Shown here: positions 1,325-59,265 of the stretch, in pieces
How the letters are laid out: each line of letters begins with the position of its first letter
Numbering within the stretch: position 1 is the first letter of the stretch
From: a bacterium
GTDB taxonomy: Bacteria; Bacillota; Clostridia; Christensenellales; CAG-138
NCBI GenBank assembly: GCA_963643205.1
Contig: CAVIJJ010000002.1
Span: 1,256 to 65,255 of the forward strand
Direction of reading: 5' to 3'
DNA: 64,000 bases
Notes under the pieces: generated by a model
Database searches by the model: none
Seen by the model: the letters and a program-made list of their open reading frames with translations, nothing else
What the model was told of the DNA's origin: nothing
Translations under genes and position numbers: made by a program

Positions 1325-1473
1325 GCGATTTTCCCCCTTGATATCCGCTTTTTTTGCATTATATCAAAAACCGCATCGCCACGCAACGAGGTTTGACTTA
1401 GATAGAATGTACTGATATAATGTTTAATTAAGTGTATGCTAAGCGTGCATTAAGCATCAGGGAGGGGAAACCA

Positions 1474-3372
1474 GTGCTTAAATCCAAATACCGTGGTGTA
1501 TTGGTGCTGTTGATGGACGTGTGCCTGATATTCGGCTTCAACTTCGCCATGTTCTTCGATCATCTCGCGTCCGACGGGATACAGTTATACAATCTTGTAA
1601 TGCATATCGGCCTTCTTACGGTATGCGTACTCGTGTTCCAGCTTATTTTCAAAACATACAATACTCTTTGGCGATATGCGGAAAGCCAGGAGTATCTTAC
1701 GCTGCTTAAGGGTATGGGCTGCGGTTTTTTGCTGTACACTTTGGTAAACGTAATACTCGGCACGAACAGGGTTTGGATAGTTGAGGCGTTTAACGGCACG
1801 GCTATCGCGCTTCTTGTAATGCTCGCGGTGCGCTTTATTTATCGCGCTTACAGGCGAAGCGTAAACGGGGCGGACAAATCGGCGAAGCGCGTTGTGGCGA
1901 TAGTCGGCGCGGGCACGGCGGGAGCGGCTCTTTTAAGCGATATTAAGGAAAATGTATACGGCGATTATAAGCCGTATTGCTTTGTGGACGATTCAAAAGA
2001 GAAGCAAGGAAAAACAATCCACGGCGTAAACGTTATGGGCCCGGTGGGCAGCATTGTTGAGCTGCTTGCGAATACGCCCGTTACGGATATAATAATAGCT
2101 ATAAACGCGGCTTCTGCCGAAAGGCGGCGCGAAATACTGAATGTATGCACAAATACCCGCTGCCGCGTGCATATATACGGAAACCCCCTAACTCAGATCG
2201 GCGCCGGGACGAAGGACGGCAAAAAGGTGGTAAGAGAGGTTCAGATAGAGGACCTTCTCGGCCGCGAGCCCATAAGGCTTGAAAATAAAAGGGTAAGTGA
2301 GTTTGTCCGCGGCAAGGTGGTGCTTGTAACGGGCGGCGGCGGATCGATAGGATCCGAGCTTTGCCGCCAGATAGCCGCGCAGGGGCCGAAAAGGCTTATT
2401 GTGCTGGACATCGCGGAAAACACAACATACGAGCTTCAGAACGACCTTATGCATACCTACGGCGCGGATTTCCCGCTGAGCGTAGAGATAGCCTCCGTGC
2501 GGGACAGGGCAAGGCTTGACGAGATATTCTCCCGCTACCGCCCGCAGCTTGTGCTGCACGCGGCGGCGCATAAGCACGTGCCGCTTATGGAAAGCTGCCC
2601 CGGCGAGGCAATAAAAAACAACGTGTTCGGAACATATAACACGGCCTGCGCCGCAAGAAAATACGGCGCGGAGAAATTCGTGCTTATATCAACGGATAAG
2701 GCCGTTAACCCCACAAACGTTATGGGTGCCACCAAGTGCCTGTGCGAGCAGGTGCTTCAATCCTTAAACGGCGGCGATACGGAGTTTGCCGCGGTGCGCT
2801 TCGGCAACGTATTGGGCTCAAGCGGCTCCGTTATTCCCCTTTTCAAAAAGCAGATAGAATACGGCGGACCCGTTACCATTACGGACAGGCGCATAATAAG
2901 ATATTTTATGACAATTCCAGAGGCGGCGCAGCTGGTGCTGGAGGCGGGGTATTTTGCCCATAAGGACGAGGTGTTCGTGCTTGATATGGGCGAGCCTGTG
3001 CGCATAGCGGACCTGGCGGACAAGCTTATAAGGCTTTCGGGCTATATTCCGGGCGTGGATATAGAGATAAAAGAGGTTGGCTTAAGGCCCGGGGAGAAGC
3101 TTTATGAGGAGCTTCTTATGTCCAACGAAAACCTGAACAGAACCGAAAACAGGAAAATATTCGTTGAAAAGCGCCCGGAGATGGACGAGGAGCTTATGAA
3201 GAGCAGGCTTGACGAACTTGAAAAAACGGTTGAAGCGGCGGACAATGAGGCCATGATTGCGGCCCTGCACAAGCTTGTGCCCACATTCAGAACCCCTGAC
3301 GAGGTTAATAAAAACGCCGAGCGCGTAAAGGCGGAGTGCGCCAGGTGCGCGGGCAGCGGGGTGGCCGTATGA
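1474..3372 (+). CDS. Membrane-bound polysaccharide biosynthesis protein, CapD/PglF/EpsC-type UDP-sugar 4,6-dehydratase
   Basis: N-terminal TM helices followed by two Rossmann motifs (IVGAGTAGA; VTGGGGSIGSEL). Start moved from the ORF-track 1432 to in-frame GTG 1474, which is preceded by GGAGGGG at 6 nt. Confidence 0.85.
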   Translation: MLKSKYRGVLVLLMDVCLIFGFNFAMFFDHLASDGIQLYNLVMHIGLLTVCVLVFQLIFKTYNTLWRYAESQEYLTLLKGMGCGFLLYTLVNVILGTNRVWIVEAFNGTAIALLVMLAVRFIYRAYRRSVNGADKSAKRVVAIVGAGTAGAALLSDIKENVYGDYKPYCFVDDSKEKQGKTIHGVNVMGPVGSIVELLANTPVTDIIIAINAASAERRREILNVCTNTRCRVHIYGNPLTQIGAGTKDGKKVVREVQIEDLLGREPIRLENKRVSEFVRGKVVLVTGGGGSIGSELCRQIAAQGPKRLIVLDIAENTTYELQNDLMHTYGADFPLSVEIASVRDRARLDEIFSRYRPQLVLHAAAHKHVPLMESCPGEAIKNNVFGTYNTACAARKYGAEKFVLISTDKAVNPTNVMGATKCLCEQVLQSLNGGDTEFAAVRFGNVLGSSGSVIPLFKKQIEYGGPVTITDRRIIRYFMTIPEAAQLVLEAGYFAHKDEVFVLDMGEPVRIADLADKLIRLSGYIPGVDIEIKEVGLRPGEKLYEELLMSNENLNRTENRKIFVEKRPEMDEELMKSRLDELEKTVEAADNEAMIAALHKLVPTFRTPDEVNKNAERVKAECARCAGSGVAV

Positions 3373-4112
3373 TAGATATACACAGCCACATACTCTATGG
3401 CGTGGACGACGGCTCCCGGTCCGCTGAGGACAGCATGATAATGGCCGAAACCGCCACGGAAAACGGCGTGAATGAAATGATAATGACTCCGCATTGCTGC
3501 GAGCCGGACGGATTCAATAACTTCAACACACCGGAGCTGAGGCGCAGGTTTGACCTTATGCGGGCCATGATGAGGGAAAAGGAAGTGCCGCTTAAGCTTC
3601 ATAACGGCATGGAGGTTTTCGCGACAAAAAATCTTGCGGAGCAGCTGGACGCGGGCAGGCTCTTAACCCTTGCGGGGTCAAAGTATCTGCTTATAGAGTT
3701 CGCGTTCGGTGAAATGGGGGATTTTATAGAGCGCAGTCTGCAAGCGGTTTTTGAGCGGGGACTTGTGCCGGTTATAGCGCACCCCGAAAGATATTATTTT
3801 GTTCAGGACGAGCCTCAGTTTTTGGAGCATTGCGCGCTCTGCGGCGCGGTGGTGCAGCTTAATAAGGGCAGCCTTTCGGGAATGTTTGGCCGCCATGCAA
3901 GAAAAACGGCCTTCTGGTGCCTGGAGCACGGATGCGTGCACATAATAGCCAGCGACGCGCACGGCCCTTATCAGCGCACAACAAAGCTTAACAATTGCTT
4001 TGACGCGGTTGCCGAATACTACGGAAAGGATGCCGCAAAGCTTCTTTTTGAGGAAAATCCGGCGGCTATAATAAAGAATGACGAGGTATTTGCCCTCGCG
4101 AGCGAATTTTAA
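3369..4112 (+). CDS. cpsB: PHP-family protein-tyrosine phosphatase (CpsB/YwqE type)
   Basis: Starts MIDIHSHILYGVDDG and has later IASDAHG and HPERY motifs typical of Mn-dependent CpsB phosphatases. ATG 3369 overlaps the upstream stop (ATGA). The ORF-track start 3336 was rejected. Confidence 0.85.
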   Translation: MIDIHSHILYGVDDGSRSAEDSMIMAETATENGVNEMIMTPHCCEPDGFNNFNTPELRRRFDLMRAMMREKEVPLKLHNGMEVFATKNLAEQLDAGRLLTLAGSKYLLIEFAFGEMGDFIERSLQAVFERGLVPVIAHPERYYFVQDEPQFLEHCALCGAVVQLNKGSLSGMFGRHARKTAFWCLEHGCVHIIASDAHGPYQRTTKLNNCFDAVAEYYGKDAAKLLFEENPAAIIKNDEVFALASEF

Positions 4113-4139
4113 CTTACTGCGGAAGGAAACGAACGCACG

Positions 4140-4940
4140 ATGAAACGGCTTCATATCACAATGCTTATATTGTTCATTGCCTCGGCGTTGCTGCTTGGGG
4201 GAGTGCTGTTCTATAAGCATTATACAACCGATACCACCATGCCTGAAATAAGGATAGATGAGGAACCGCTGCAGCTTTCGGTAGCGGACGGTACGGACGC
4301 GCTCATGCAGGGGGTAAGCGCGTACGACGAAAAGGACGGAGACATAACGGACAATCTTATACTGCAAAAGATAGAAATGGTTGAATCGGGCGAGGTTGTG
4401 GCAACCTATGCCGTGGCGGACAACGACAGCCACGTTGTTACCCGCACAAGAACAATAGTGTATACGGACTATGTTTCCCCGCGCTTCAGCCTTTCAAAGG
4501 AGCTTAGATATTCCCCGACCGGCAGCATACAGGTTAGGGACCGCCTGACCGCTACGGACGTTATAGATGGCGACATAAGCGCGTCCATCCGCATAAACAC
4601 AAACAATCTTTCCCCGTATTACGCGGGAATTTACCCCGTTACGTTAGAGGTTACAAACAGCCTGGGCGACCACGTTTCGCTTACGCTTGATGTTGAGATA
4701 AGAACAATTGCCGATAATGAGCCGGTAATAACGCTTGATACATACCTTGTTTACATGACAAAGGAAGAATCAAAATCCTTTAAGCCCAAGGACTACGTTA
4801 AGGATGTTACAGGCGCGGACATAAAGGACGTGTATACCGACAAATCCCGCCTGAGCACGGGCGTGAACAGAGTTACCTATTCCTGCCGGAACGAAATAGG
4901 CGTGCGCGGCAGCGCGGTGCTCTACATAGTTGTGGAATAA
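4140..4940 (+). CDS. Membrane-anchored protein with repeated Ig-like (DUF5011-like) modules
   Basis: N-terminal TM helix (ITMLILFIASALLLGGVLFY). It then carries repeated A-x-D-x-x-DGDI(T/S) motifs (AYDEKDGDIT, ATDVIDGDIS), as in bacterial Ig-like/DUF5011 domains. Function unknown. Confidence 0.55.
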   Translation: MKRLHITMLILFIASALLLGGVLFYKHYTTDTTMPEIRIDEEPLQLSVADGTDALMQGVSAYDEKDGDITDNLILQKIEMVESGEVVATYAVADNDSHVVTRTRTIVYTDYVSPRFSLSKELRYSPTGSIQVRDRLTATDVIDGDISASIRINTNNLSPYYAGIYPVTLEVTNSLGDHVSLTLDVEIRTIADNEPVITLDTYLVYMTKEESKSFKPKDYVKDVTGADIKDVYTDKSRLSTGVNRVTYSCRNEIGVRGSAVLYIVVE

Positions 4941-4953
4941 GGGGGAGGCAGCA

Positions 4954-6444
4954 ATGGATACACACGCGTCAAACCGAATGACGGATATAAGCCTTGTCTG
5001 CGTTATCCGCCGAATAGTAAAGGAAATACCCACGATTATCGCGGCGGGCCTTATAGCGGCCATGCTTACGGTGTCGTACCTTAAGCTTTTTTATAAGCCC
5101 GAGTATACCGCAACGGCTACTGTTGCCGTGGGCATGAAAAACGCGAGCTACACATCCGTTTTTTCAAACCTTTCAAACACGTCCGAAATGGCGGGCACAT
5201 TTATAAAGCTTTTTGACAGCACAATGTTCTCGGTCATTTCAAAGGAAAAGCTGGGTGTTGAAAAGCTAAACGGCACTCTTACGGCAGCCGTTGTGCCTGA
5301 AACAAACCTTATGACAATGAGCGTAACGGCGGACAATCCTACGGACGCGTTCAAAACGCTCAGGTTTTTGCTTGATAACTATTCGGTTGTGTCGGACTAC
5401 GTTTTTCAAAACGTGGTGCTGAGGGAGCTTGACCCGCCGAGCGTGCCCGGTTCCCCGTCAAACCCGCTGCAGCTCACCTCCGCCGTAAAGCGCGCGTTCG
5501 CTATAGGCGCGGCGGCAATGGCACTTGCCATAATAGCATCCATACTGCTTGCCGACAGGGTGCAGACGTCCTCCGCCGCAAGGCATAAAATAGACGCTAA
5601 GCTTTACTGCACCATACATCACGAAACAAAGAACAAAACCCTTAGGACAAAGCTTAAAAAGACCACAAAGGGCCTTCTTATAACCAACACCACCTCAAGC
5701 TTCAGCTTCAGCGAGGAGGTGGCAAAGCTTGCCTCCCGCGTGTCGCACGCGGCAAAGCGGGACAATAAAAACGTTTTACTCGTCACAAGCGTTGCCGAAA
5801 ACGAGGGCAAGTCCACCGTTGCCGCGAACCTTGCAATTTCCCTTGCCCAAAAGGGCGGCACGGTGCTGCTTGTGGACGCGGATATGCATAAGCCCTCTCA
5901 GTTTAAGCTTTTCGGCTGCGAGGTTAAAACCGAGCTTGCGGACATACTGCGCGGAGCGCGCCGGCTTGAATCGGAATACCTTGAAAAATACGGCGTAAAC
6001 GTAATACTCTCATCAAAAACTCAGAGCGACGCGGCGGAGCTTTTGTCCTCAAAGCAGATGAGAAAAATACTGGCGGATATAAGCGCCGCAACGGATTATA
6101 CAATAATAGACTCACCGCCTATGGCAATGTTTTCGGATTCGGAAATACTGGCGGATATAGCGGACTACTCGCTCCTTGTCGTAAGGCAGGACTGCGTAAG
6201 CGCCGGCAGAATTAACGACGCCGTGGATATGCTCAATCAAAGCAAGGCGCACCTGCTGGGAGTGGTGTTTAACGACGTGCGCTCAACGCCCATAGTGGGT
6301 CACAGCAGCTATGGCTACGGCTACGGATATGGCTACGGTTACGGCTACGGCCATCACTACGGCTACAACAAGGCCTATGGCTACGGCGAATCTAAGGGCA
6401 AGCACAGGCATACGGAGGGGACCGATGGAAGAAAAGAAGGTTGA
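4954..6444 (+). CDS. Fused Wzz-type chain-length modulator / BY-tyrosine kinase (paralog 1)
   Basis: Two TM helices flank a Wzz-like ectodomain, followed by a P-loop kinase: Walker A SVAENEGKST, Walker A' LLVDADMHKPS, Walker B YTIIDSPP. The C-terminal Tyr cluster is (YG)7HHYGYNKAYGYG. The start was chosen at ATG 4954 (GGGGGAGG upstream). Confidence 0.85.
   Translation: MDTHASNRMTDISLVCVIRRIVKEIPTIIAAGLIAAMLTVSYLKLFYKPEYTATATVAVGMKNASYTSVFSNLSNTSEMAGTFIKLFDSTMFSVISKEKLGVEKLNGTLTAAVVPETNLMTMSVTADNPTDAFKTLRFLLDNYSVVSDYVFQNVVLRELDPPSVPGSPSNPLQLTSAVKRAFAIGAAAMALAIIASILLADRVQTSSAARHKIDAKLYCTIHHETKNKTLRTKLKKTTKGLLITNTTSSFSFSEEVAKLASRVSHAAKRDNKNVLLVTSVAENEGKSTVAANLAISLAQKGGTVLLVDADMHKPSQFKLFGCEVKTELADILRGARRLESEYLEKYGVNVILSSKTQSDAAELLSSKQMRKILADISAATDYTIIDSPPMAMFSDSEILADIADYSLLVVRQDCVSAGRINDAVDMLNQSKAHLLGVVFNDVRSTPIVGHSSYGYGYGYGYGYGYGHHYGYNKAYGYGESKGKHRHTEGTDGRKEG
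6310..6351 (+). repeat. Hexanucleotide (TAY-GGN)7 tract encoding the (YG)7 phospho-acceptor tail of kinase 1
   Basis: tat ggc tac ggc tac gga tat ggc tac ggt tac ggc tac ggc, read directly from the sequence. Confidence 0.9.
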
Positions 6445-7954
6445 TCGCCGGGACGATGGGGCGATAGATATATCGCGGCTTTTGATGGAGTTTCTTCCGG
6501 TACTGAAGAAGCTTTTCTGGGTACCGCTTGTGTTCGCGTTTATAGCGGGGGCGCTTGTTTTCGTAAGGGCATATTTAAGCTATACGCCCATGTATGAATG
6601 CGAGGTTACGTTTACGGTAGAGGTTGTTACAACCTCAACAACGGGCAGCGAATCAAGCAGCGGCTACAGCTATTACAATAAGGCAACGGCGGAGCAGCTG
6701 GGAAAAACGTTCCCTTATCTTATAAGCTCGGATCTTATGTATTCCCGGCTTAAAAAAGAGCTTGGCGTAACCGGCATAAACGGCACCATAACCGCCGAAA
6801 CGATGGACAACACAAACCTTTTCACCATGCGCGTAACCAGCAGCAGCCCAAAGGACGCGAAAAACATACTTGAGGCGGTGATAAAGCTTTATCCGGAGGT
6901 TGCGGACTACGTTATAGGCAGCACGGCAATGAACCTTTTGACGGATCCGGTTGAGCCCAGTGTACCGTATAACAGCTTTAACGGGGTAAACTCGGCCGTA
7001 AAGGGCGCGATAGTTGGCGCGGTTGTGGGCTTTGGCATACTTATGCTGTGCGCCGCGGTGAGGAACACCGTGCGCGAGCCGGACGACATTCGCGTAAAGC
7101 TGAACCAAACCTGCCTTGCAACGCTTCCTAAGGTCACGTTCAAAAAGCGCAAGCAGAACAAGGTTAATACCCTTTCAATAATGAATAAGCGCGTATCGGG
7201 CTCCTTCCACGAAAGCATACGCAGCCTAAGAATAAAGCTTTTAAGGCGGCTTGAAGGTAAGGGATGCCACGCAATACTTGTTACAAGCACCATGCCGGGC
7301 GAGGGCAAAACAACCGTTTCAACAAACCTGGCGCTGTCGCTCAGCAAAAACGGCGCGCGCGTAATACTTATAGATATGGACTTAAGGCGCCCCAGCGTAA
7401 AGAAGGCGCTTGGCATAACCGAGCCCACAAACGGGCTTGTTGAGCTTAGGGAGCGCAAAGTAAAAAGCGTTGGCGAATGCCTCTGCCAGCTGGAGGGCAC
7501 GTCGCTTAAACTGCTTGCCGGGGACAATGCCCGCAAGAGCACCCGCCCCATAAGCGTAAAATGGCTGAAAAACCTTATAGATACTCTCAGAAGCCAGGCG
7601 GACTTTATAATTGTGGACACTCCGCCGTGCGGTCTGCTTGCGGACAGCGCGAACATAGCAAGCGCCGTGGACTCAGCGCTTTATGTAATAGGCGCGGGCG
7701 GGGTAGAGGTAGCCAATATACTGGACAGCCTTCAGTTCCTTTCCGAATCCGGCACGGAGGTTATAGGCTGCGTGCTCAACGGCGTAGAAACAACCATAGG
7801 CGGAAGCCACGGCTACGGATACGGCTATGGCTACGGTTACGGTTACGGCTATTCCAAATACGGCTACGGCTACCGCAGCCGGGAGGACAGCGACGATAAA
7901 GACGACAGCGACGATAGCGACGCAAACGAAGAATCATTCGGCGAAAGCGAGTAA
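6425..7954 (+). CDS. Fused Wzz-type chain-length modulator / BY-tyrosine kinase (paralog 2)
   Basis: Starts MEEKKVDRR (GGAGGGG upstream) and overlaps paralog 1 by 20 nt. It has two TM helices, Walker A STMPGEGKTT, Walker A' ILIDMDLRRPS and Walker B FIIVDTPP. The tail is H(GY)7SKYGYGY followed by an acidic SREDSDDKDDSDDSD stretch. The ORF-track start 6311 is an out-of-frame read of the upstream YG repeat. Confidence 0.85.
   Translation: MEEKKVDRRDDGAIDISRLLMEFLPVLKKLFWVPLVFAFIAGALVFVRAYLSYTPMYECEVTFTVEVVTTSTTGSESSSGYSYYNKATAEQLGKTFPYLISSDLMYSRLKKELGVTGINGTITAETMDNTNLFTMRVTSSSPKDAKNILEAVIKLYPEVADYVIGSTAMNLLTDPVEPSVPYNSFNGVNSAVKGAIVGAVVGFGILMLCAAVRNTVREPDDIRVKLNQTCLATLPKVTFKKRKQNKVNTLSIMNKRVSGSFHESIRSLRIKLLRRLEGKGCHAILVTSTMPGEGKTTVSTNLALSLSKNGARVILIDMDLRRPSVKKALGITEPTNGLVELRERKVKSVGECLCQLEGTSLKLLAGDNARKSTRPISVKWLKNLIDTLRSQADFIIVDTPPCGLLADSANIASAVDSALYVIGAGGVEVANILDSLQFLSESGTEVIGCVLNGVETTIGGSHGYGYGYGYGYGYGYSKYGYGYRSREDSDDKDDSDDSDANEESFGESE
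7811..7852 (+). repeat. Hexanucleotide (GGN-TAY)7 tract encoding the (GY)7 tail of kinase 2
   Basis: ggc tac gga tac ggc tat ggc tac ggt tac ggt tac ggc tat. It is near-identical in composition to 6310-6351. Confidence 0.9.
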
Positions 7955-8448: not shown

Positions 8449-10230
8449 ATGGAAAAGAATATGCCCAAGCGGAAGGTGCTTGGATCCGAGGCGCTGGGCG
8501 AATTGCTTGGCCGCGTGAAGGACGGCACTTTTAAGGACATTGTAATCGACTGGAAATGGATAGCGGCATACACCCGCCGTTACCGCGCGGCCGTTGTGAT
8601 ATACACGCTTTTGGGAATACTGAGCGCCTCTTTCGCGCTTGTTTCGGCCATAGCCAGCAAATACACAATTGATATAATTACGGGGCAGGATGAGGCGAAG
8701 CTTTGGTTTGTGATAACGGTAATGCTTTTGTCCGCCGTGCTGAGCGTTGCCCTAAACAGCGCCGTTTCAAGAATATCCGCAAAGGTTTCAATAAAGGTAA
8801 ATAACGATATACAGGCCGAAATATTCGATAATGTTATCCGCGCGGACTGGAGCGCGCTGAACTCCTACCCGGGCGGGGATTTGCTCAACCGCCTGAATAC
8901 GGACGCGTACACCGTTGCCGGCAACGCCATAAGCTGGCTGCCGGACCTTATAATAGCGGTATACACGTTCATAATAACGCTTCTCTCAATTCTTTATTAC
9001 GACGCGATAATGGCTGTTCTCGCTCTTTCAAGCGCGCCGTTCCTTATATTCAGCGCCCGAAGGCTGCTTGCCAAAATGCGTTCCTTCGGCCAAAAGGCGC
9101 GGGAGCTGAACAGCGACCTTATGAGCTTTGAAACGGAAACGTTTAATAACCTTGATTCCATAAAAAGCTTTGGCATAACCGATAGGCAAAGCGAGCGGCT
9201 TAGGGAAAAGCAGGCGAATTACAAAAAGGTTTCGCTTGATTATAATCTTTTCAGCATAAAAACGCAGGCCGCGCTTTCGCTTATAGGCTCCGCCGTGCAG
9301 ATGGCCGCGTTTTGCTACTGCCTGTATCTTCTTTGGAACGGGAAAATACTCTACGGCACCATGACCCTTTTCCTTTCGCAAGGGGCGAAGCTTTCTTCCG
9401 CCTTTAATTCGCTTGTAAAAACCGTGCCCGTGTTCCTTAATGCGTCGGTTTCAGCGTCAAGAATACGCGAACTTATGGCAATACCGCCCGAGCGGATAGG
9501 CGCGGGTGAGGACGCGCTGAACGCGGATCAAGGCTTAAGCGTTAAGCTTGAAAACGTAAGCTTTGCTTATAAAGAAAACGAAATCGTGCTTAAAAACGTT
9601 TGCTTTTCGGCCGAGCCCGGCGAGATAGTCGCGCTTATAGGCCCGTCCGGCGGCGGCAAAACCACAATGGTGCGCATGATACTTTCGCTTATAACCCCTA
9701 AAAACGGCAGCGCAACGCTTTCGGACGCGCACGGTTCAAGGCAGCAGATGAACGCTTCCCTAAGGGGATTCTTCTCCTATGTGCCGCAGGGGAACACGCT
9801 TATTTCCGGCACGATTGCCGATAATTTAAGAATGGTTAAAAGCGACGCAACGGACGCGGAGCTTGAGGCGGCGCTTAAAACGGCGTGCGCGTGGGAATTC
9901 GTTTGCAAAATGGACGGCGGAATAAACGCCTCCGTAGGGGAGCACGGCCACGGCCTGTCCGAAGGGCAGGCGCAGCGCGTGGCAATAGCGAGAGCCGTGC
10001 TCAGAAACGCCCCGGTAATGCTGCTTGACGAGGCCACATCCGCGCTTGACGTGGCAACCGAGCGGCAGGTGCTTAAATCCATAATGCTTGCCCACCCGAA
10101 CAAAACCTGCGTTGTTACAACGCATAGGCCGAGCGTATTGGGCCTGTGCGGCAGGGTATACAGGGTGCATTGCGGCATGGTTGAGGAAATAGACGGCGAC
10201 ACAGCCGAAAAACTGACCATGGATTATTGA
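8449..10230 (+). CDS. ABC exporter half-transporter (MsbA/PglK-like, fused TMD-NBD)
   Basis: 593 aa. A six-helix exporter domain is followed by an NBD with Walker A GPSGGGKTT, signature LSEGQAQR and Walker B VMLLDEATSALD. There is no C39 peptidase domain. Confidence 0.9.
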   Translation: MEKNMPKRKVLGSEALGELLGRVKDGTFKDIVIDWKWIAAYTRRYRAAVVIYTLLGILSASFALVSAIASKYTIDIITGQDEAKLWFVITVMLLSAVLSVALNSAVSRISAKVSIKVNNDIQAEIFDNVIRADWSALNSYPGGDLLNRLNTDAYTVAGNAISWLPDLIIAVYTFIITLLSILYYDAIMAVLALSSAPFLIFSARRLLAKMRSFGQKARELNSDLMSFETETFNNLDSIKSFGITDRQSERLREKQANYKKVSLDYNLFSIKTQAALSLIGSAVQMAAFCYCLYLLWNGKILYGTMTLFLSQGAKLSSAFNSLVKTVPVFLNASVSASRIRELMAIPPERIGAGEDALNADQGLSVKLENVSFAYKENEIVLKNVCFSAEPGEIVALIGPSGGGKTTMVRMILSLITPKNGSATLSDAHGSRQQMNASLRGFFSYVPQGNTLISGTIADNLRMVKSDATDAELEAALKTACAWEFVCKMDGGINASVGEHGHGLSEGQAQRVAIARAVLRNAPVMLLDEATSALDVATERQVLKSIMLAHPNKTCVVTTHRPSVLGLCGRVYRVHCGMVEEIDGDTAEKLTMDY

Positions 10231-10321
10231 GAATTCAGCTGAAAAAGCTTGTTTTTTGAAATTATATGCGGTATACTATGGCTATCCGTAAGGATATAAG
10301 ATTCAGTCGGAGGGGACTAAA

Positions 10322-10549
10322 ATGAAAAAATTCTTTGCACTGGTATTGGCAATGGCCCTTATATGCTGCTTTACCACCGCTGCGCTTGCTGACAGCGACG
10401 TGGTCAGCCCCGAAAATGGCAATACAGACGTTGATTCCAACGAGACTTCTCCGCAGACCGGTTACGATTTCGGTATCGAGAGCGTGGTACTGCTGGCTGT
10501 GCTTTGCGGCGGCGCGGCGCTGTACATTGGCAAAAAGGTTAAGGCCTAA
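10322..10549 (+). CDS. 75-aa secreted mini-protein with sortase sorting signal SPQTG
   Basis: GGAGGGG RBS. It has a Sec signal peptide (MKKFFALVLAMALICCFTTAALA), an acidic 23-aa mature segment (DSDVVSPENGNTDVDSNETSPQT), an SPQTG motif, a hydrophobic helix and a KKVKA tail. A terminator lies immediately downstream. Confidence 0.7.
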   Translation: MKKFFALVLAMALICCFTTAALADSDVVSPENGNTDVDSNETSPQTGYDFGIESVVLLAVLCGGAALYIGKKVKA

Positions 10550-10578
10550 GCCTTATTCAGCATCCTAAACGAACTTTA

Positions 10579-10616
10579 GCTCCATAAATGCGTGGCCGTT
10601 TATGGAGCGTTTTTTT
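10579..10616 (+). terminator. Rho-independent terminator after the mini-protein gene
   Basis: GCTCCATAAA-loop-TTTATGGAGC followed by GTTTTTTT. Confidence 0.8.
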
Positions 10617-10651
10617 GCCCCATATTCTGAAAACGAAAGGGAGAGGGCCGA

Positions 10652-11494
10652 ATGAAAAAATCCGTAAAGATAATACTCAGCCTGCTGTGCGTTGTAATGG
10701 CGGCGGTATGTGTTTGCTGTGTGCTTTATATTGTGCAGTATGTTCGCGGAAACGACCTTAATGAAAGGCTTGTGAGCAACGTTGCGTCCCAAACCGTTGA
10801 AGCCGTGCTGACCGAGGCGGAGGATGAAACGGGCGATGAAACCGACGGCGGCGAAACCGCGGCCGGGGACGAAACAAAGGAAGCGCCGCAAAAAACATTC
10901 AAGAATATTGACTTTGCCGCGCTTAGCGCGATAAACGGGGATATATACGCCTGGATAGATATGCCGGGCACCGTTATAAACTACGCCGTTGTGCAGAGCG
11001 AGGATGAAAACGAGTTTTATTCGGATCATTCCGTGGACGGCAGCTACTATTCCGGCGGCAGCATTTTTTCGCAGCGCTATAATAAGCGGGACTTTACGGA
11101 TCCCGTTACCGTGCTTTACGGGCACAACCGCAAAAACGGCACCATGTTTGCCGCGCTTAACGATTTCGCGGACCCGACATTCTTTGAAAAGCACAAAACA
11201 GTTTATATTTATATTGAGGGCATGGTATATGAATATACCGTGTTCGCCGCATATCCGCACAGCAGTGAGCATCTGCTCCTTAATCACGATTTTACGGACG
11301 AGGAAGAGTTTACCGAGTATTTCGGCTCGCTTAAGGATGGCGTAAACACGAATTACGATAGGGATATGTTCCCGCTGTTCGGGGATAAGGTGCTAACGCT
11401 TTCAACCTGCTATAAGGAAAACCGCATGCAGCGCTATCTTGTGCAGGCAAAGCTTACCGCGCAGTACTCTCTGGTTTACGACAAGGCGGAATAA
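10652..11494 (+). CDS. srtB: Class B sortase
   Basis: N-terminal TM anchor and acidic linker. The segment DIYAWIDMPGTVINYAVVQ is class-B-like. It has catalytic His (VLYGHN), catalytic Cys (LTLSTC) and a downstream Arg (RYLVQAKL). Confidence 0.85.
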   Translation: MKKSVKIILSLLCVVMAAVCVCCVLYIVQYVRGNDLNERLVSNVASQTVEAVLTEAEDETGDETDGGETAAGDETKEAPQKTFKNIDFAALSAINGDIYAWIDMPGTVINYAVVQSEDENEFYSDHSVDGSYYSGGSIFSQRYNKRDFTDPVTVLYGHNRKNGTMFAALNDFADPTFFEKHKTVYIYIEGMVYEYTVFAAYPHSSEHLLLNHDFTDEEEFTEYFGSLKDGVNTNYDRDMFPLFGDKVLTLSTCYKENRMQRYLVQAKLTAQYSLVYDKAE

Positions 11495-11497
11495 CCA

Positions 11498-12595
11498 ATG
11501 GAAAAAACCAAGAAAAAGGGCAAAATAAGCCCGATATTGCTTATATTCATAATACTCGCCTCCCTTACGGCGGCGCTTGTGAGCGCGGCGCTTATAATAT
11601 GGTTCAGCGGGCGCGCCTCGTTAAGCAACAAGGAAACAAAGGCTCCCGCGCTTGTGGAGGTGCCTAAGCCGGAAGAAACGGAGACCGTGGCGGCGGAACC
11701 CACGCCCACACCGAATACAAAAATAGAGTACGATATAACGAGCGGCGGAAGATATTATAAATATAAAGACGGGCTTATAAATCTGCTCCTCATAGGCGTT
11801 GATTCGGACAAAAAGCCATCAAAGCCGCTTGAGTACGGCAACAATAACCAGGCGGACGTTATAATACTGGCCTCGCTTGACACAAAGAACAGCGAAATGT
11901 CCCTTATAGCCGTTAACCGCGATACCATGTGCGACTTGACCGTAACCGACAGCGACGGAAACATTACCGGCATAGGCCGCGGGCAGATTGCCCTTTCGTA
12001 TTCTTACGGCGACGGGTTGGACGCAAGCTGTCAGCTTTGCAGGGATGCCGTTTCAAACCTGTTTTACGGGCTTCAGATAGATGGCTACGCCGCGTTTTAC
12101 ATGGGCGGCGTGGAGGAGCTTAACGACGCGCTTGGCGGAATAACCGTAACTATACTGGGCGATTACCCATTTACCAAGCACTCCGGCTGCAGAAACATGA
12201 AGGAGGGCGAGGAGGTTACGCTTACCGGCAAGCAGGCCGCGGCCTATATAAGATACAGGCTCCATACAGAGGACGGCAATACGGGCCGCATGGCCAGGCA
12301 AAAGCAATATATGCTTGCGATGATTAAAACCGCGCGGCAGAAGATTTACGAAAACCCCACGTGCGTTGTGAACCTTTATACGTCGCTTAACAAATATATA
12401 ATAAGCGATCTTGATGTGGGTGAGCTGAGCTACCTGGCCACTGAGGCCGCGGGTATGTCCTTCTCGGGCGATATATACAAGCTTGAGGGTGAGTCGATTG
12501 TAAGTGACGAGGATCATGTTGAGCTTACTATTGATGATCAATCCCTGTTTGATACAATGATAAGCGTGTTTTATGAGGACGTTACCCCCGAATAA
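11498..12595 (+). CDS. LytR-CpsA-Psr (LCP) family cell-wall glycopolymer ligase
   Basis: TM anchor followed by the LCP core LLLIGVDSD...NQADVIILASLD...LIAVNRDT. There is a 3-nt gap to srtB. Confidence 0.85.
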   Translation: MEKTKKKGKISPILLIFIILASLTAALVSAALIIWFSGRASLSNKETKAPALVEVPKPEETETVAAEPTPTPNTKIEYDITSGGRYYKYKDGLINLLLIGVDSDKKPSKPLEYGNNNQADVIILASLDTKNSEMSLIAVNRDTMCDLTVTDSDGNITGIGRGQIALSYSYGDGLDASCQLCRDAVSNLFYGLQIDGYAAFYMGGVEELNDALGGITVTILGDYPFTKHSGCRNMKEGEEVTLTGKQAAAYIRYRLHTEDGNTGRMARQKQYMLAMIKTARQKIYENPTCVVNLYTSLNKYIISDLDVGELSYLATEAAGMSFSGDIYKLEGESIVSDEDHVELTIDDQSLFDTMISVFYEDVTPE

Positions 12596-12685: not shown

Positions 12686-13129
12686 ATGGAAAATGCATTT
12701 GAAAGACAAGGCACTCTTGTTGCCGAAATAAACAGCGCCCTGCCGAGCGGCGAGCGCGAACAGAAGGCGGCCCAGCTGCCGGCGCTTAACCTTGCCTATA
12801 TAGGAGACACGGTTTTTGACCTGTACGTTCGTACAATGCTTGTAACCCGAGCGGATGCCAAGGTGCACGAGCTGCATCTTATGAGCGCCGCGCGCGTATG
12901 CGCCAAGGGGCAGGCGGAGGGCTTCAGAAAGATTGAGCCCATGCTCAGCGAGGAGGAAATGAGCGTATATAAGCGCGGGCGCAATTCGCACCTGGGTACT
13001 GTCGCGAAAAACGCCACCATTTCCGATTACCGCACGGCTACCGGGCTTGAGGCGCTTATAGGCTACCTGTACCTTACCGGGCAGGACGCAAGGCTTAAAG
13101 AGCTTATGCAAATAATACTTGAACACTGA
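12686..13129 (+). CDS. mrnC: Mini-ribonuclease 3
   Basis: 147 aa with an RNase III-like signature LAYIGDTVFDLYVR. Conserved position upstream of rlmB and sigH. Confidence 0.85.
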   Translation: MENAFERQGTLVAEINSALPSGEREQKAAQLPALNLAYIGDTVFDLYVRTMLVTRADAKVHELHLMSAARVCAKGQAEGFRKIEPMLSEEEMSVYKRGRNSHLGTVAKNATISDYRTATGLEALIGYLYLTGQDARLKELMQIILEH

Positions 13130-13146
13130 AAAGGGAGGCTATAACC

Positions 13147-13914
13147 ATGCCACAAAGACAAATGGAAGCCCTGCTTCTTTGCCATACACCCGAGCCTGAA
13201 ACGGCCATAGCCCTGGCAGGCCGGCTTTGCTACAGCGATAGCGACATTCTTTCTCTTAAGGACGCGGTGCAGGGGAAAAGCGAAAGCTTTGTTAAAAAGC
13301 TTATATCGATGGGGCATCTTTCCCCTATAGAGCACGCTTCGTTCACGTTTGCCGCGCAGGGTGTAAGCCGCGCCCTGCTTGCCCAGATTACAAGGCACCG
13401 CATAGCAAGCTTTTCCGTGCAGTCCCAAAGATACGTTAAAAAGGACGCGCTGGACTATATTGTTCCGCCCAGCATAAAGGCATTGGGTGAGGAGGCGGAG
13501 CTTGAGTACATAGCCCAAATTCAGCAGTGCGAGCAATTCTATCAGCATTGGCTTTCATTGGGCATCCCCGCGGAGGACGCGCGCTTTATGCTGCCCAACG
13601 CCGCCGAAACAAGAATGGTATTCACCATGAACGCACGCGAGCTTATGCATTTCTTCTCCCTGCGCTGCTGCAACAGGGCGCAATGGGAAATAAGAACCCT
13701 TGCCTGGGCAATGCTTGGCATGTGCATGCGCGAGGCGCCGTGCCTTTTTGAAAACTGCGGACCGTCCTGCGCCGCCGGTCCCTGCCCGGAGGGCAAAAAG
13801 TGCTGCGGCAAAACAAACGAGGTGCGCGCAAGGCTTGAGGAGCTTAAGTCCCTTGCGGCCAGCGGTGCCGACGATGCGGAACTATCCCGCTTTGCCCGCG
13901 AAAATTGCATATAA
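13147..13914 (+). CDS. thyX: FAD-dependent thymidylate synthase
   Basis: ThyX motif RHRIASFSVQSQRY. It carries a Cys-rich C-terminal extension, CGPSCAAGPCPEGKKCCGK. Confidence 0.9.
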   Translation: MPQRQMEALLLCHTPEPETAIALAGRLCYSDSDILSLKDAVQGKSESFVKKLISMGHLSPIEHASFTFAAQGVSRALLAQITRHRIASFSVQSQRYVKKDALDYIVPPSIKALGEEAELEYIAQIQQCEQFYQHWLSLGIPAEDARFMLPNAAETRMVFTMNARELMHFFSLRCCNRAQWEIRTLAWAMLGMCMREAPCLFENCGPSCAAGPCPEGKKCCGKTNEVRARLEELKSLAASGADDAELSRFARENCI

Positions 13915-13934
13915 AAGTTTAAGGAGAATATAAA

Positions 13935-15065
13935 ATGGCTCAGTACAAGAACAACAGCCGCAACTACCGCCGAAACGACAGGAACGACGAGGGCGAAGTA
14001 GTATTTAAGGACGGCCAGCCCGTTACAACATACAGAAAGAGCAGGAGCGACAGCCGCTCGAACTCCGGCTATTCATCCGGCCGCTCCGGCAGCTATTCCG
14101 GCAAAACCTACGGCCGTCGCGATAACAAAACCGGCGATTCGGAGCAGAAAACATATTATAAGAAGAGGGACAACGCTGAGGGCCGCTTTGACCGCGCCAA
14201 GAAGGACGATAATTATAAGTCCAAGCGCGAGGCTTCCTCATATAAGGAAAACGAGAAGCAGGCGGAGAACGCCAAGCAGTCTAACGCCAACGAGGAGCAG
14301 GACGAGCTGCCCTATATCATAATGGGCCGCAACGCCGTGCGCGAGGCCGTGAAGAGCGGCAGGAGTATAGACAAAATACTTGTTACAAAGGAAATGGACG
14401 GCTCCCTCAGGGAAATCATTAACCTTGCAAGGGACAATAACATAAGGGTGGACAGCGTTGCCCGCGAAAAGCTTGATGAGCTTTGCTTGCCCTTTGGCCA
14501 CGGCCAGAAGACCGGAAACCATCAGGGAATAGTCGCAATGGTTCCGGGCGTTGAGTATTGCGAAATAGCGGATATTCTTAACTACGCCAAGGAAAAGGGA
14601 GAGAAGCCCTTTGTAATAATACTTGACGGAATAGAGGATCCGCATAATCTCGGTTCAATAATAAGGAGCGCCGTATGCGCCGGAGCGCACGGCATTATAA
14701 TCCCCCGCCGCAGGGCCGTAAGCGTTACCGCCGCGGCATGCAAGGCAAGCGCCGGCGCCGTTGAATACGCCCACATTGCCCGCGTTGCCAATGTTGCCAA
14801 CGCTATAGCCAGGCTTAAGGACGAGGGACTCTGGATAGCGGGTGCCGATATGAGCGGCACGGCCATGACATCCGCCCGTATGGAGGGCGCTCTTGCCCTT
14901 GTTATAGGCAGCGAGGGAGACGGCATAGGCAGGCTTGTAAAGGAAAAGTGCGACTTCCTTGTGTCCATCCCCATGTTTGGCCAGATTGATTCGCTTAACG
15001 CCGCAGTTGCCGCGGCCGTGCTTATGTTTGAAAAGCGCAGGCAGGACGGCATAAAGAAAAACTGA
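13935..15065 (+). CDS. rlmB: 23S rRNA (guanosine-2'-O)-methyltransferase RlmB (TrmH/SpoU family) with ~125-aa basic low-complexity N-terminal extension
   Basis: SpoU motifs ILDGIEDPHNLGSIIRSA, VIGSEGDGI and IPMFGQIDSLNAAVAAAV. There is a strong RBS (AAGGAGA) before ATG 13935. Confidence 0.85.
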   Translation: MAQYKNNSRNYRRNDRNDEGEVVFKDGQPVTTYRKSRSDSRSNSGYSSGRSGSYSGKTYGRRDNKTGDSEQKTYYKKRDNAEGRFDRAKKDDNYKSKREASSYKENEKQAENAKQSNANEEQDELPYIIMGRNAVREAVKSGRSIDKILVTKEMDGSLREIINLARDNNIRVDSVAREKLDELCLPFGHGQKTGNHQGIVAMVPGVEYCEIADILNYAKEKGEKPFVIILDGIEDPHNLGSIIRSAVCAGAHGIIIPRRRAVSVTAAACKASAGAVEYAHIARVANVANAIARLKDEGLWIAGADMSGTAMTSARMEGALALVIGSEGDGIGRLVKEKCDFLVSIPMFGQIDSLNAAVAAAVLMFEKRRQDGIKKN

Positions 15066-15079
15066 AAAGGATAAAAGCA

Positions 15080-15724
15080 GTGGAGATTAACGACGAGTGC
15101 GCGGGCACCGGGCGCGTGGAAAAACCGAGCGACGAGGAGCTGATAGCCCTTTCGCGAAGCGGTGAAGCGTGGGCGGAGGAAGCGCTGTGCGAGCGGCACA
15201 AGGACCTGGTACGCATAAAGGCGAGGCCGTACTTTCTGATAGGGGCGGATAGGGAAGACCTGATTCAGGAAGGCATGATAGGGCTTTATAAGGCCGTGCG
15301 CGATTATGAGCCGGGGCACGACATGAGCTTTCGTTCGTTCGCGGAGCTTTGCATAGTGCGCCAGATAATAACGGCCATAAAGCAGGCCACGCGCAAAAAG
15401 CATGCCCCACTGAACACATATATATCCTTTTATAAAACCACGGATGAGGAAAACGAGCGCACGCTTATGGATACCATGCCCGCCGCGCGTACGGACAATC
15501 CGGAGGAGCTTATAATAAGCCGGGAGAGCATGACGGACATGAACAAAATGCTCGATACCATGCTTACCCCGCTTGAAAAGAGCGTGCTTGAGCTTTTTAT
15601 TGAAGGGAAAAGCTATCAGGAGATAGCCGCCGCGCTCGGCAGGGGACGGAAAACGGTTGATAACGCCCTGCAGCGCATAAAGAAAAAGATTGAGGCGTAT
15701 CTTAAAACAAGAACAAAGGAATAA
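15080..15724 (+). CDS. sigH: RNA polymerase sigma factor SigH
   Basis: GTG start. Region 2 reads FLIGADREDLIQEGMIGLYKAVRDYEP and the region 4 HTH reads SYQEIAAALGRGRKTVDNALQRIKKK. It lies downstream of mrnC-rlmB, as in Bacillus. Confidence 0.85.
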   Translation: MEINDECAGTGRVEKPSDEELIALSRSGEAWAEEALCERHKDLVRIKARPYFLIGADREDLIQEGMIGLYKAVRDYEPGHDMSFRSFAELCIVRQIITAIKQATRKKHAPLNTYISFYKTTDEENERTLMDTMPAARTDNPEELIISRESMTDMNKMLDTMLTPLEKSVLELFIEGKSYQEIAAALGRGRKTVDNALQRIKKKIEAYLKTRTKE

Positions 15725-59155: not shown

Positions 59156-59216
59156 AGTCCAACAGAATTCGCATGCGGCGTGAAATGCCCGTGTGAATCT
59201 TGTTGGACTTTTTTAT
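59156..59216 (+). terminator. Long hairpin plus T-run between yezD-like ORF and the giant gene (terminator/attenuator)
   Basis: AGTCCAACA ... TGTTGGACT encloses a structured ~36-nt insert and is followed by TTTTTT. It lies 50 nt upstream of ATG 59266. Confidence 0.6.
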
Positions 59217-59265
59217 TCTGCCGGCCTTGCGGAGCGAATATCGTAAAAGGAGGAAAACTACGATA

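Follow-up and report, generated by a model that had tools for sequence, protein, structure and literature searches.

How small can the natural substrate of a sortase be, and to what use could a cell put an anchored peptide of some twenty residues? The question is raised by a short open reading frame (ORF) at positions 10322 to 10549 of a 64,000-nucleotide stretch of contig CAVIJJ010000002.1, from a member of the Clostridia (Christensenellales, CAG-138); this whole stretch is called the window below, and the ORF the mini-gene. Sortase substrates are generally thought of as folded surface proteins, and the product of the mini-gene would leave only 23 residues on the wall. We argue here, from comparisons of sequences, that the mini-gene is a real and conserved gene, that its product is probably a minimal substrate fixed to the wall by the predicted class B sortase (SrtB) encoded next to it, and that both genes are tied to a gene for a LytR-CpsA-Psr (LCP) glycopolymer phosphotransferase. 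We then discuss whether the peptide may be the stalk of a glycopolymer.

A very small gene with a complete sorting signal

The precursor has all the parts of a tripartite sorting signal protein: a Sec signal, a pentapeptide that fits the class of the neighbouring sortase, and a hydrophobic segment followed by a basic C-terminal tail (Table 1). Read heuristically, the signal peptide consists of an MKK n-region, an 18-residue hydrophobic core and an A-L-A that follows the -3/-1 rule, and by the same heuristic it is present in all 41 orthologues from the related genomes described below. The pentapeptide, SPQTG, is of the (S/P)PXTG type recognised by C. difficile SrtB, a class B sortase; in vitro this enzyme cuts SPQTG peptides after the T, before the G, and SPQTG is one of the (S/P)PXTG motifs that it cleaves most efficiently (PMC4155245). 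The sequence after the expected cleavage point is G-YDFGIESVVLLAVLCGGAALYIG-KKVKA. A preliminary description of this DNA had listed a ribosome-binding site (RBS), a signal peptide ending in ALA, a mature part of 23 residues, a tripartite sorting signal and a terminator, and all of them are present as it described them.

No Pfam family matches the mini-ORF at E <= 0.01, Gram_pos_anchor and the LPXTG-anchor models included, which is expected for the latter because the motif is not LPXTG; no NCBIfam model matches it at E <= 0.01 either, and the sole matches in the two collections, to ExtJ and WGxxGxxG, are at the level of the signal peptide and far under the cutoffs. When the whole window was searched with a regular expression (signal peptide, xPxT[GSAN], hydrophobic stretch and basic tail), two ORFs were found, the mini-gene and a genuine PPQTG protein of 1507 aa. 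The latter (59200..63723, forward strand) is secreted and combines Listeria-Bacteroides repeats, DUF4430 and a long stalk of PT(V)A repeats with the PPQTG at its C-terminus; it would be a conventional large client for a sortase of this type.

The AlphaFold2 (AF2) model of the precursor contains helices at residues 2-25 and 52-74 only, which in the model would be the signal peptide and the membrane anchor. Residues 26-51 have no modelled secondary structure, with a predicted local distance difference test (pLDDT) score of about 50, and of less than 50 at residues 27-36 and 43-45.

A search of 5.8 billion proteins retrieved nine homologues of 65-96 aa, with 60-78% identity to the mini-protein, and all nine can be aligned with it at the start, in the signal peptide, at SPQTG and along the hydrophobic segment. 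When 1.84 billion cluster representatives were searched with a profile, there were 87 matches, mostly of 65-95 aa and of the same architecture. Pooled with the copies derived from genomes, the matches amount to 104 distinct full-length members. SPQTG is exact in 85 of these, its T is invariant and its G is kept in 101. A second conserved motif, which the preliminary description had missed, lies near the mature N-terminus, 0-12 residues past the signal-peptide cleavage site: V-x-S-P-E-x-x-N-T, with S-P in 101 of the 104 members, E next in 80 and N-T in 61. The predicted mature part is 20-34 residues long, and in a single case 93. Three weaker matches carry SPKTG: P0212 (165 aa), which does not adjoin any sortase and is probably not a member, and P0210 and P0200, whose contigs of less than 1 kb make their context uninformative. 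No source that we searched has a name for the family, and full-text literature searches turned up no paper on it.

Could such a short ORF simply be a chance reading frame in the leader of a srtB operon? Its shortness, the lack of any Pfam or NCBIfam match and the lack of a name in any source would agree with this. The pairwise ratio of nonsynonymous to synonymous substitution rates (dN/dS) is, on the other hand, 0.07-0.31, even with synonymous sites close to saturated; the frame, the start, the RBS and all parts of the sorting signal are kept in the 104 members, and the ORF is present in 41 of 41 related genomes. We give a chance ORF practically no credence.

The conserved features of the family are not those of composition. 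The mature peptide of the window has a net charge of -6 and no lysine, and the preliminary description was right to call it acidic; as a family trait acidity does not hold, since net charge runs from -6 to +2, so that acidity is not the selected property. The charge-modifying wall decoration that the same description had offered among its candidates is therefore rejected. What is retained in the wider family, where the hydrophobic segment diverges freely, is VxSPExxNT together with SPQTG. Longer members have Pro/Glu/Asp-rich spacers between the N-terminal motif and SPQTG, and the motif stays N-terminal. A conserved head on a spacer of variable length is what would be expected of a functional head on a stalk attached at its C-terminus. 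The long variants, of 113-144 aa, are P0191 (L082 2834..3181), P0144, P0163, P0170, P0177 and L020 4269..4703; one long variant has five tandem VVSPE repeats, and the N-terminal motif is repeated in P0191. P0191 and P0144 have the same neighbours as the shorter members.

Some class B-like sortases polymerise pilins, and one can imagine that SrtB joins these peptides head-to-tail, or via a lysine, into a fibre. Many members do have a K in SPEK. The position after SPE is, however, H, K, N or A, so that no lysine is conserved, and the mature part in the window contains none; moreover the mature N-terminus is variable and there is no pilin fold or motif. We reject a mini-pilin for want of a conserved lysine and regard it as extremely improbable.

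A less improbable idea is that of a small membrane protein with a regulatory or organising role, in which the uncleaved precursor, or the acyl-enzyme, tunes or scaffolds SrtB, LCP or both (as a decoy, a primer or an organiser), the transmembrane helix being the functional part. Sorting-signal hydrophobic regions are usually poorly conserved, and here close relatives share a nearly unchanged segment, S43-L67, which covers the pentapeptide and most of the hydrophobic stretch and is better kept than the mature part. Against this stands the divergence of the hydrophobic segment across the wider family, in which the two motifs remain; furthermore, the variants with long spacers make sense only if the N-terminal motif is displayed away from the anchor. 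The transcription of the gene, to which we come below, speaks in the same direction, as its own promoter and the attenuator imply a large molar excess of the product over the enzymes, which fits a structural product better. Taken together, we consider the regulatory role improbable.

Linkage to sortase and LCP genes, and the layout of the operon

The sortase gene that follows the mini-gene encodes a protein of 280 aa that scores 144.5 bits against TIGR03064, slightly short of the cutoff of 153.75, and all of its 15 PDB matches (B. anthracis, Listeria, C. difficile, S. aureus and others) are named sortase B or uncharacterized protein. Judged by these two kinds of match, the enzyme is probably of class B. 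The catalytic triad His158 (YGHN), Cys253 (TLSTC) and Arg261 is invariant in 16 homologues and aligns with that of B. anthracis SrtB. The LCP protein encoded next matches PF03816 with 85.8 bits (cutoff 24.6) and TIGR00350 with 65.9 bits (cutoff 62.3), and its PDB relatives are BrpA, TagV/TagU and Cps2A.

To see how far these genes travel together we scanned one genome per species (GTDB representatives) with the sortase alignment and obtained 72 loci: 41 related ones, whose sortase is at least about 40% identical to that of the window, and 31 distant controls (Bacilli and others) with less than 35% identity. The related loci come from Oscillospiraceae, 'Christensenellaceae Phil1', Lawsonibacter, Dysosmobacter, Vescimonas, Brotocaccenecus, Oscillibacter and similar genomes. 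In every one of the 41, srtB is preceded on its own strand by a mini-ORF at a distance of 58-265 nt; the ORFs have 74-93 aa, with one of 144 aa, and nearly all follow a GGAGG RBS. The same pattern search in the 31 distant loci (about 370 kb) found no mini-ORF upstream of srtB and only one unrelated 209-aa protein. The preliminary description had suggested looking for mini-ORFs beside srtB genes, and had made its proposal depend on conservation and on a translation signal; the search found the first in all related genomes, and the second in nearly all. With the ORF and its sorting signal conserved, purifying selection acting on it and srtB always adjacent, its view of a genuine, unusually small substrate of the neighbouring SrtB is supported.

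The linkage extends to the LCP gene, which belongs to the group in 40 of the 41 related loci and is found at none of the 31 distant ones. Three gene orders occur: mini-srtB-LCP (L007-L031), LCP-mini-srtB (L039 and L045-L047, among others) and LCP-murI-mini-srtB (L032-L038 and L040-L044). A linkage that has survived three rearrangements is good evidence for a functional unit of mini-gene, srtB and LCP. The 41 genomes all belong to one order and so are not independent, which is mitigated by the three gene orders and by the parallel in Mediterraneibacter gnavus described below. The murI gene that separates LCP and mini-gene in the third order encodes glutamate racemase, an enzyme of peptidoglycan precursor synthesis (L034 4655..5443; L041 4722..5531).

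The mini-gene also appears to have its own transcription signals. The preliminary description had pointed to TATACT as a plausible -10 element. A generic promoter scan left this promoter unscored because its -35 element is weak. In six species, CTTG, a spacer of about 17 nt and TATACTAT are nevertheless invariant where flanking bases have diverged and synonymous sites are near saturation, which supports TATACT as a real -10 element. An inverted repeat close to the start of the 5' untranslated region (UTR) is conserved as well, TATCC..A.GGA being found in all six aligned species; it could be a hairpin stabilising the 5' end of the mRNA, or an operator. Between the mini-gene and srtB, the terminator stem is followed by GTTTTTTT, with a folding free energy (dG) of -15.6 kcal/mol. 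An equivalent hairpin and T-run lies between the two genes in 36 of 42 loci, and in its conserved stem (CCCATAAATG/CGTTTATGGG) 5 of 11 pairs show compensatory changes. A scan of 10150..10700 against Rfam gave only a chance match to a small nucleolar RNA (E = 0.92). The stem is unusually conserved in the intergenic regions of the window and of L007-L031, though the sortases are only about 50% identical between species.

This layout looks like that of an abundant precursor transcript with attenuated read-through into the genes of the enzymes. A strong promoter of its own and an attenuating terminator are usual where an abundant structural precursor is encoded in front of the enzymes that act on it, and we count this in favour of a stalk. 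The same layout, a short precursor gene with its own promoter and a leaky terminator followed by genes of processing enzymes, is known from ribosomally synthesised and post-translationally modified peptides (RiPPs) such as lantibiotics; the likeness is architectural only, as export in the window is Sec-dependent and the processing enzyme is a sortase.

One might then suppose that SrtB, or water acting on the acyl-enzyme, frees the 23 or so residues as a diffusible cue, a released signalling peptide having been among the candidates of the preliminary description. The small size, the separate promoter and terminator, and the neighbouring ATP-binding cassette (ABC) exporter do resemble loci of peptide pheromones. 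Nevertheless, the leader is a Sec signal and not of the double-glycine type, and the exporter, which has ABC_membrane and ABC_tran domains only, lacks a C39 peptidase, so that a bacteriocin or a pheromone of the double-glycine/C39 type is rejected. In addition, none of the conserved neighbours examined was recognised as a sensor kinase or a response regulator, the complete tripartite sorting signal is conserved, and the variants of 90-130 aa with Pro-rich spacers are not pheromone-like. We judge a released signal to be very improbable; like the decoy or regulatory substrate of SrtB, another candidate of the preliminary description, it is without positive support.

A possible peptide stalk for a glycopolymer

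What could 23 residues do once they are on the wall? Fully extended they would span about 8 nm (our estimate), which is below the thickness of a Gram-positive wall. Being too short to clear the wall, the peptide would probably not act at the surface by itself, while a polymer attached to it would. The reading that we favour is that the LCP enzyme loads a glycopolymer onto the peptide, which SrtB then ligates to peptidoglycan. The glycosylation scaffold thus becomes the preferred one among the candidates of the preliminary description, given the LCP linkage in three gene orders, the capsule locus, and precedents in two other bacteria.

The first precedent is that of Actinomyces oris, in which LcpA phosphotransfers a glycan onto the sortase substrate GspA before GspA is anchored by SrtA, lcpA adjoining gspA (PMC6381275). 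There as in the window the gene of a sortase substrate adjoins an LCP gene, and the order of events that we propose, glycan transfer by LCP to a membrane-held substrate and then anchoring by sortase, is that of GspA. The differences are also clear. GspA is a protein of about 25 kDa and the window peptide has about 23 residues and no fold, so that homology between them is not expected; the A. oris enzyme is the housekeeping SrtA of an actinobacterium, whereas the window has a predicted class B enzyme with SPQTG, in the Clostridia. We regard the favoured reading, on which the peptide system would be a miniature analogue of GspA-LcpA-SrtA, as about evenly balanced between right and wrong.

The second precedent brings in the capsule. 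In M. gnavus, the class B sortase gene srtB4, part of a capsule gene cluster, was found to be needed for the display of the capsule, for gut colonisation and for dampening inflammation (2026 study, PMC13121745). The adjoining LCP gene, RGna_12040, is likewise required for capsule display; the authors consider that the sortase is unlikely to make the capsule, and give neither its mechanism nor the substrate of SrtB4 (PMC13121745). We recovered the locus from human-gut metagenome contigs, starting from the primer sequences of that study: a 27-mer derived from a primer found nothing, and a 26-mer internal to srtB4 found 60 loci. The gene order is Wzz (RGna_12030), SrtB4, LCP, VanZ, a 199-aa SPQTG protein, CpsB and CpsD, and the start of the LCP gene overlaps the stop codon of srtB4. 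Over nearly their full length SrtB4 and the M. gnavus LCP are 34% and 32% identical to the proteins of the window.

As in the window, then, srtB is followed immediately by LCP within a capsule locus of the Wzz/CpsB type with a bacterial tyrosine kinase (BY-kinase), and a secreted protein with an SPQTG sorting signal is encoded. This 199-aa protein ends with ...TTSPQTG, a hydrophobic stretch and RKKRA, and is at least 93% identical in 32 metagenome loci. Its gene (L127 7634..8233), which is RGna_12050 by position, has its own active promoter in the supplement of the study, and its disruptant appears in the strain table with no phenotype reported (PMC13121745). Unlike the mini-gene, it stands two genes downstream of LCP and its product has no VxSPExxNT. 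RGna_12030, directly upstream of srtB4, was considered as a counterpart of the mini-gene, and the recovered locus shows a 243-aa Wzz/CpsC protein at this place. As M. gnavus belongs to the Lachnospiraceae and the mini-gene family to the Oscillospiraceae, a module of srtB, LCP and SPQTG substrate is common to capsule loci of two clostridial families.

Other known pairs resemble the window more loosely. C. difficile SrtB is likewise a class B enzyme that cuts SPQTG between T and G, and attachment to the diaminopimelate cross-bridge, expected for it, is also expected for the window; its substrates are, in contrast, large folded proteins (adhesins, hydrolases, a nucleotidase), and in C. difficile srtB and LCP have no substrate gene coupled to them. 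Among the dedicated pairs of sortase and substrate in NCBIfam, the LPKTxAVK-specific SrtB (NF040525) also has a small low-complexity surface protein beside its own sortase. The window sortase reaches only 74 bits against this model (cutoff 200), and motif (SPQTG here) and taxa differ. The 'processed acidic surface protein' family forms another such dedicated pair.

The stalk mechanism would have three steps. The precursor would be exported via Sec and held in the membrane by its C-terminal helix. The LCP enzyme would then move a polysaccharide linked to polyprenyl pyrophosphate onto a hydroxyl of the VxSPExxNT head, forming a phosphodiester; the motif is proposed to be the acceptor or recognition site, and the candidate acceptors are the Ser of SPE (S29) and the Thr of NT (T35), within the peptide DSDVVSPENGNTDV. 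Finally, SrtB would cut between T46 and G47 and join the glycopeptide to a stem peptide, either of lipid II or of nascent peptidoglycan, so that the peptide would become the covalent stalk that tethers a capsule or a wall glycopolymer. This would explain why SrtB4 is needed for capsule display in M. gnavus. More tentatively, and with somewhat more doubt than belief, we suggest that many gut Clostridia, namely Oscillospiraceae and by extension M. gnavus, may tether their capsule through a ribosomally made carrier of about 23 residues instead of by direct attachment to N-acetylmuramic acid (MurNAc), LCP phosphoglycosylating Ser or Thr of the V-x-S-P-E-x-x-N-T head and a dedicated class B sortase ligating the carrier to the stem peptide.

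Several points weigh against the stalk. The acceptor residue is a guess, and V-x-S-P-E-x-x-N-T fits no known bacterial glycosylation sequon: compared by eye, neither the PglB-type D/E-x-N-x-S/T, nor plain N-x-S/T, nor the D-S/T-A of Bacteroidetes matches it. LCP enzymes normally attach glycopolymers directly to MurNAc (PMC7831098), so that the LCP enzyme may be just the ligase that joins capsule to wall at this locus, its linkage to srtB being unrelated. One of the 41 related loci, L020, has no LCP gene within the DNA available there. The M. gnavus SPQTG protein, of about 170 residues when mature, is without the VxSPE motif, and its mutant phenotype is unreported. CD2768, the only native SPQTG protein of C. 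difficile, is not anchored in vivo (PMC5569036). The large PPQTG protein of the window lies in the same genome, and SrtB may be a general housekeeping sortase for which the mini-gene is one client.

Some of these points would suit a bare wall peptide better. SrtB would anchor the 23 or so residues, which would alter a property of the wall, cap stem peptides or serve as a recognition element, and the LCP gene would be nearby only since both proteins act on the wall. The sorting signal and the pairing with the sortase are solid, the usual action of LCP enzymes on MurNAc agrees with such a division of labour, and the peptide in the window is acidic. With a range from -6 to +2 in the family, however, the function cannot lie in the charge; the conserved element is a specific motif and not a composition, the LCP linkage persists through three rearrangements, the genetics of M. 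gnavus link a homologous sortase to the capsule, and 23 residues would, by our estimate, stay buried in the wall. We therefore think that a bare peptide is unlikely, and retain the glycopolymer stalk as the favoured reading.

The capsule locus and the meaning of the family

In the window, the three genes lie downstream of a capsule-type module (Table 1), and Wzz/BY-kinase genes are found no more than 6 kb away in roughly two-thirds of the 41 related loci. Both Wzz/BY-kinase fusions have C-terminal (GY)n repeat tails (GYGYGYGYGYGY), followed in one of them by an acidic DSDD-rich end; their ORFs overlap by about 130 nt as listed, and the true start of the second is probably further downstream. 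The exporter directly upstream of the mini-gene, which could possibly be a flippase of lipid-linked glycans, adjoins the module in the closest relatives and in L023, L028, L030 and L082. The S24-like peptidase between BY-kinase and exporter has a GSSM motif and a weak match to SipW/archaeal signal peptidases, and lacks an N-terminal membrane anchor; as it is near the module in only 6 of 41 loci, we do not retain it as a dedicated signal peptidase of the core system. Downstream of LCP, on the forward strand (12686..15724), comes a housekeeping block with Mini-III RNase, ThyX, a SpoU-type RNA methyltransferase whose N-terminus is extended by a long Ser/Arg/Lys-rich stretch, and a SigH-like sigma factor; the synteny of the block is limited to the closest relatives.

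Table 1. Features of the mini-gene and its surroundings (positions in the window)
Feature	Positions	Strand	Remarks
Capsule-type module	1432..7954	+	Pfam; same order in L001, L003
CapD-like dehydratase	1432..3372	+	Pfam
CpsB phosphatase	3336..4112	+	Pfam
Ig-like secreted protein	4140..4940	+	Pfam
Two Wzz/BY-kinase fusions	4930..6444, 6311..7954	+	Pfam
S24-like serine peptidase, 154 aa	7960..8424	+	PF00717 25.5 bits; TIGR02228 23.4 bits (below cutoff)
MsbA/PglK-like ABC exporter, half-transporter fusion	8449..10230	+	directly upstream of mini-gene
Promoter of the mini-gene	10249..10277	+	-35-like TTGTTT 10249..10254, 17-nt spacer, -10 TATACT 10272..10277
Inverted repeat TATCC-GTAA-GGATA	10283..10296	+	at about the start of the 5' UTR, between -10 element and RBS
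RBS GGAGGGG	10307..10313	+	ATG at 10322 begins 8 nt downstream
Mini-gene (predicted sortase substrate)	10322..10549	+	75-aa precursor, stop codon included; from the ORF list
Sec-type signal peptide, aa 1-23	10322..10390	+	MKKFFALVLAMALICCFTTAALA; A-L-A at -3 to -1
Predicted mature anchored peptide, aa 24-46, 23 aa	10391..10459	+	DSDVVSPENGNTDVDSNETSPQT; modelled as disordered
N-terminal motif V-V-S-P-E-N-G-N-T	10400..10426	+	family consensus V-[IV]-S-P-E-[HK]-[GPD]-N-T
Sortase pentapeptide S-P-Q-T-G, aa 43-47	10448..10462	+	cleavage expected between T46 and G47
Remaining sorting signal	10463..10546	+	YDFGIE, hydrophobic SVVLLAVLCGGAALYIG, basic tail KKVKA, then stop
Intrinsic terminator/attenuator between mini-gene and srtB	10579..10616	+	12-bp stem (10579..10608), T7 run
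Class B sortase (predicted), 280 aa	10652..11494	+	Pfam Sortase 49 bits (above cutoff)
LCP glycopolymer phosphotransferase	11498..12595	+	starts 4 nt after the srtB stop codon

Sortase substrates, class B sortases of the (S/P)PXTG type and sortase substrates glycosylated by LCP enzymes were all known already; what is new is a conserved family of substrates, each of some 23 residues, whose genes are linked to srtB and LCP within capsule loci. A family in which the anchored part is only some 20-30 disordered residues alters the idea of the uses to which a sortase can be put. It is widespread in the abundant, mostly uncultured Oscillospiraceae of human and animal guts, and absent from Pfam and NCBIfam. 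To our knowledge, protein glycosylation by LCP enzymes has so far been known only from Actinomyces oris; if our reading is true, LCP-mediated glycosylation of proteins or peptides would extend beyond Actinobacteria, and the family would be the smallest natural family of sortase substrates. As a minimal natural substrate of SrtB, the peptide could also serve as a tag for wall display or for sortase ligation in Clostridia.

Finally, the capsule of M. gnavus controls gut colonisation and inflammatory potential, and the family provides a testable mechanism for the unexplained need of a sortase in the display of this capsule (PMC13121745). If the mechanism is true, it would be a previously unrecognised mode of capsule anchoring, by means of a peptide stalk.

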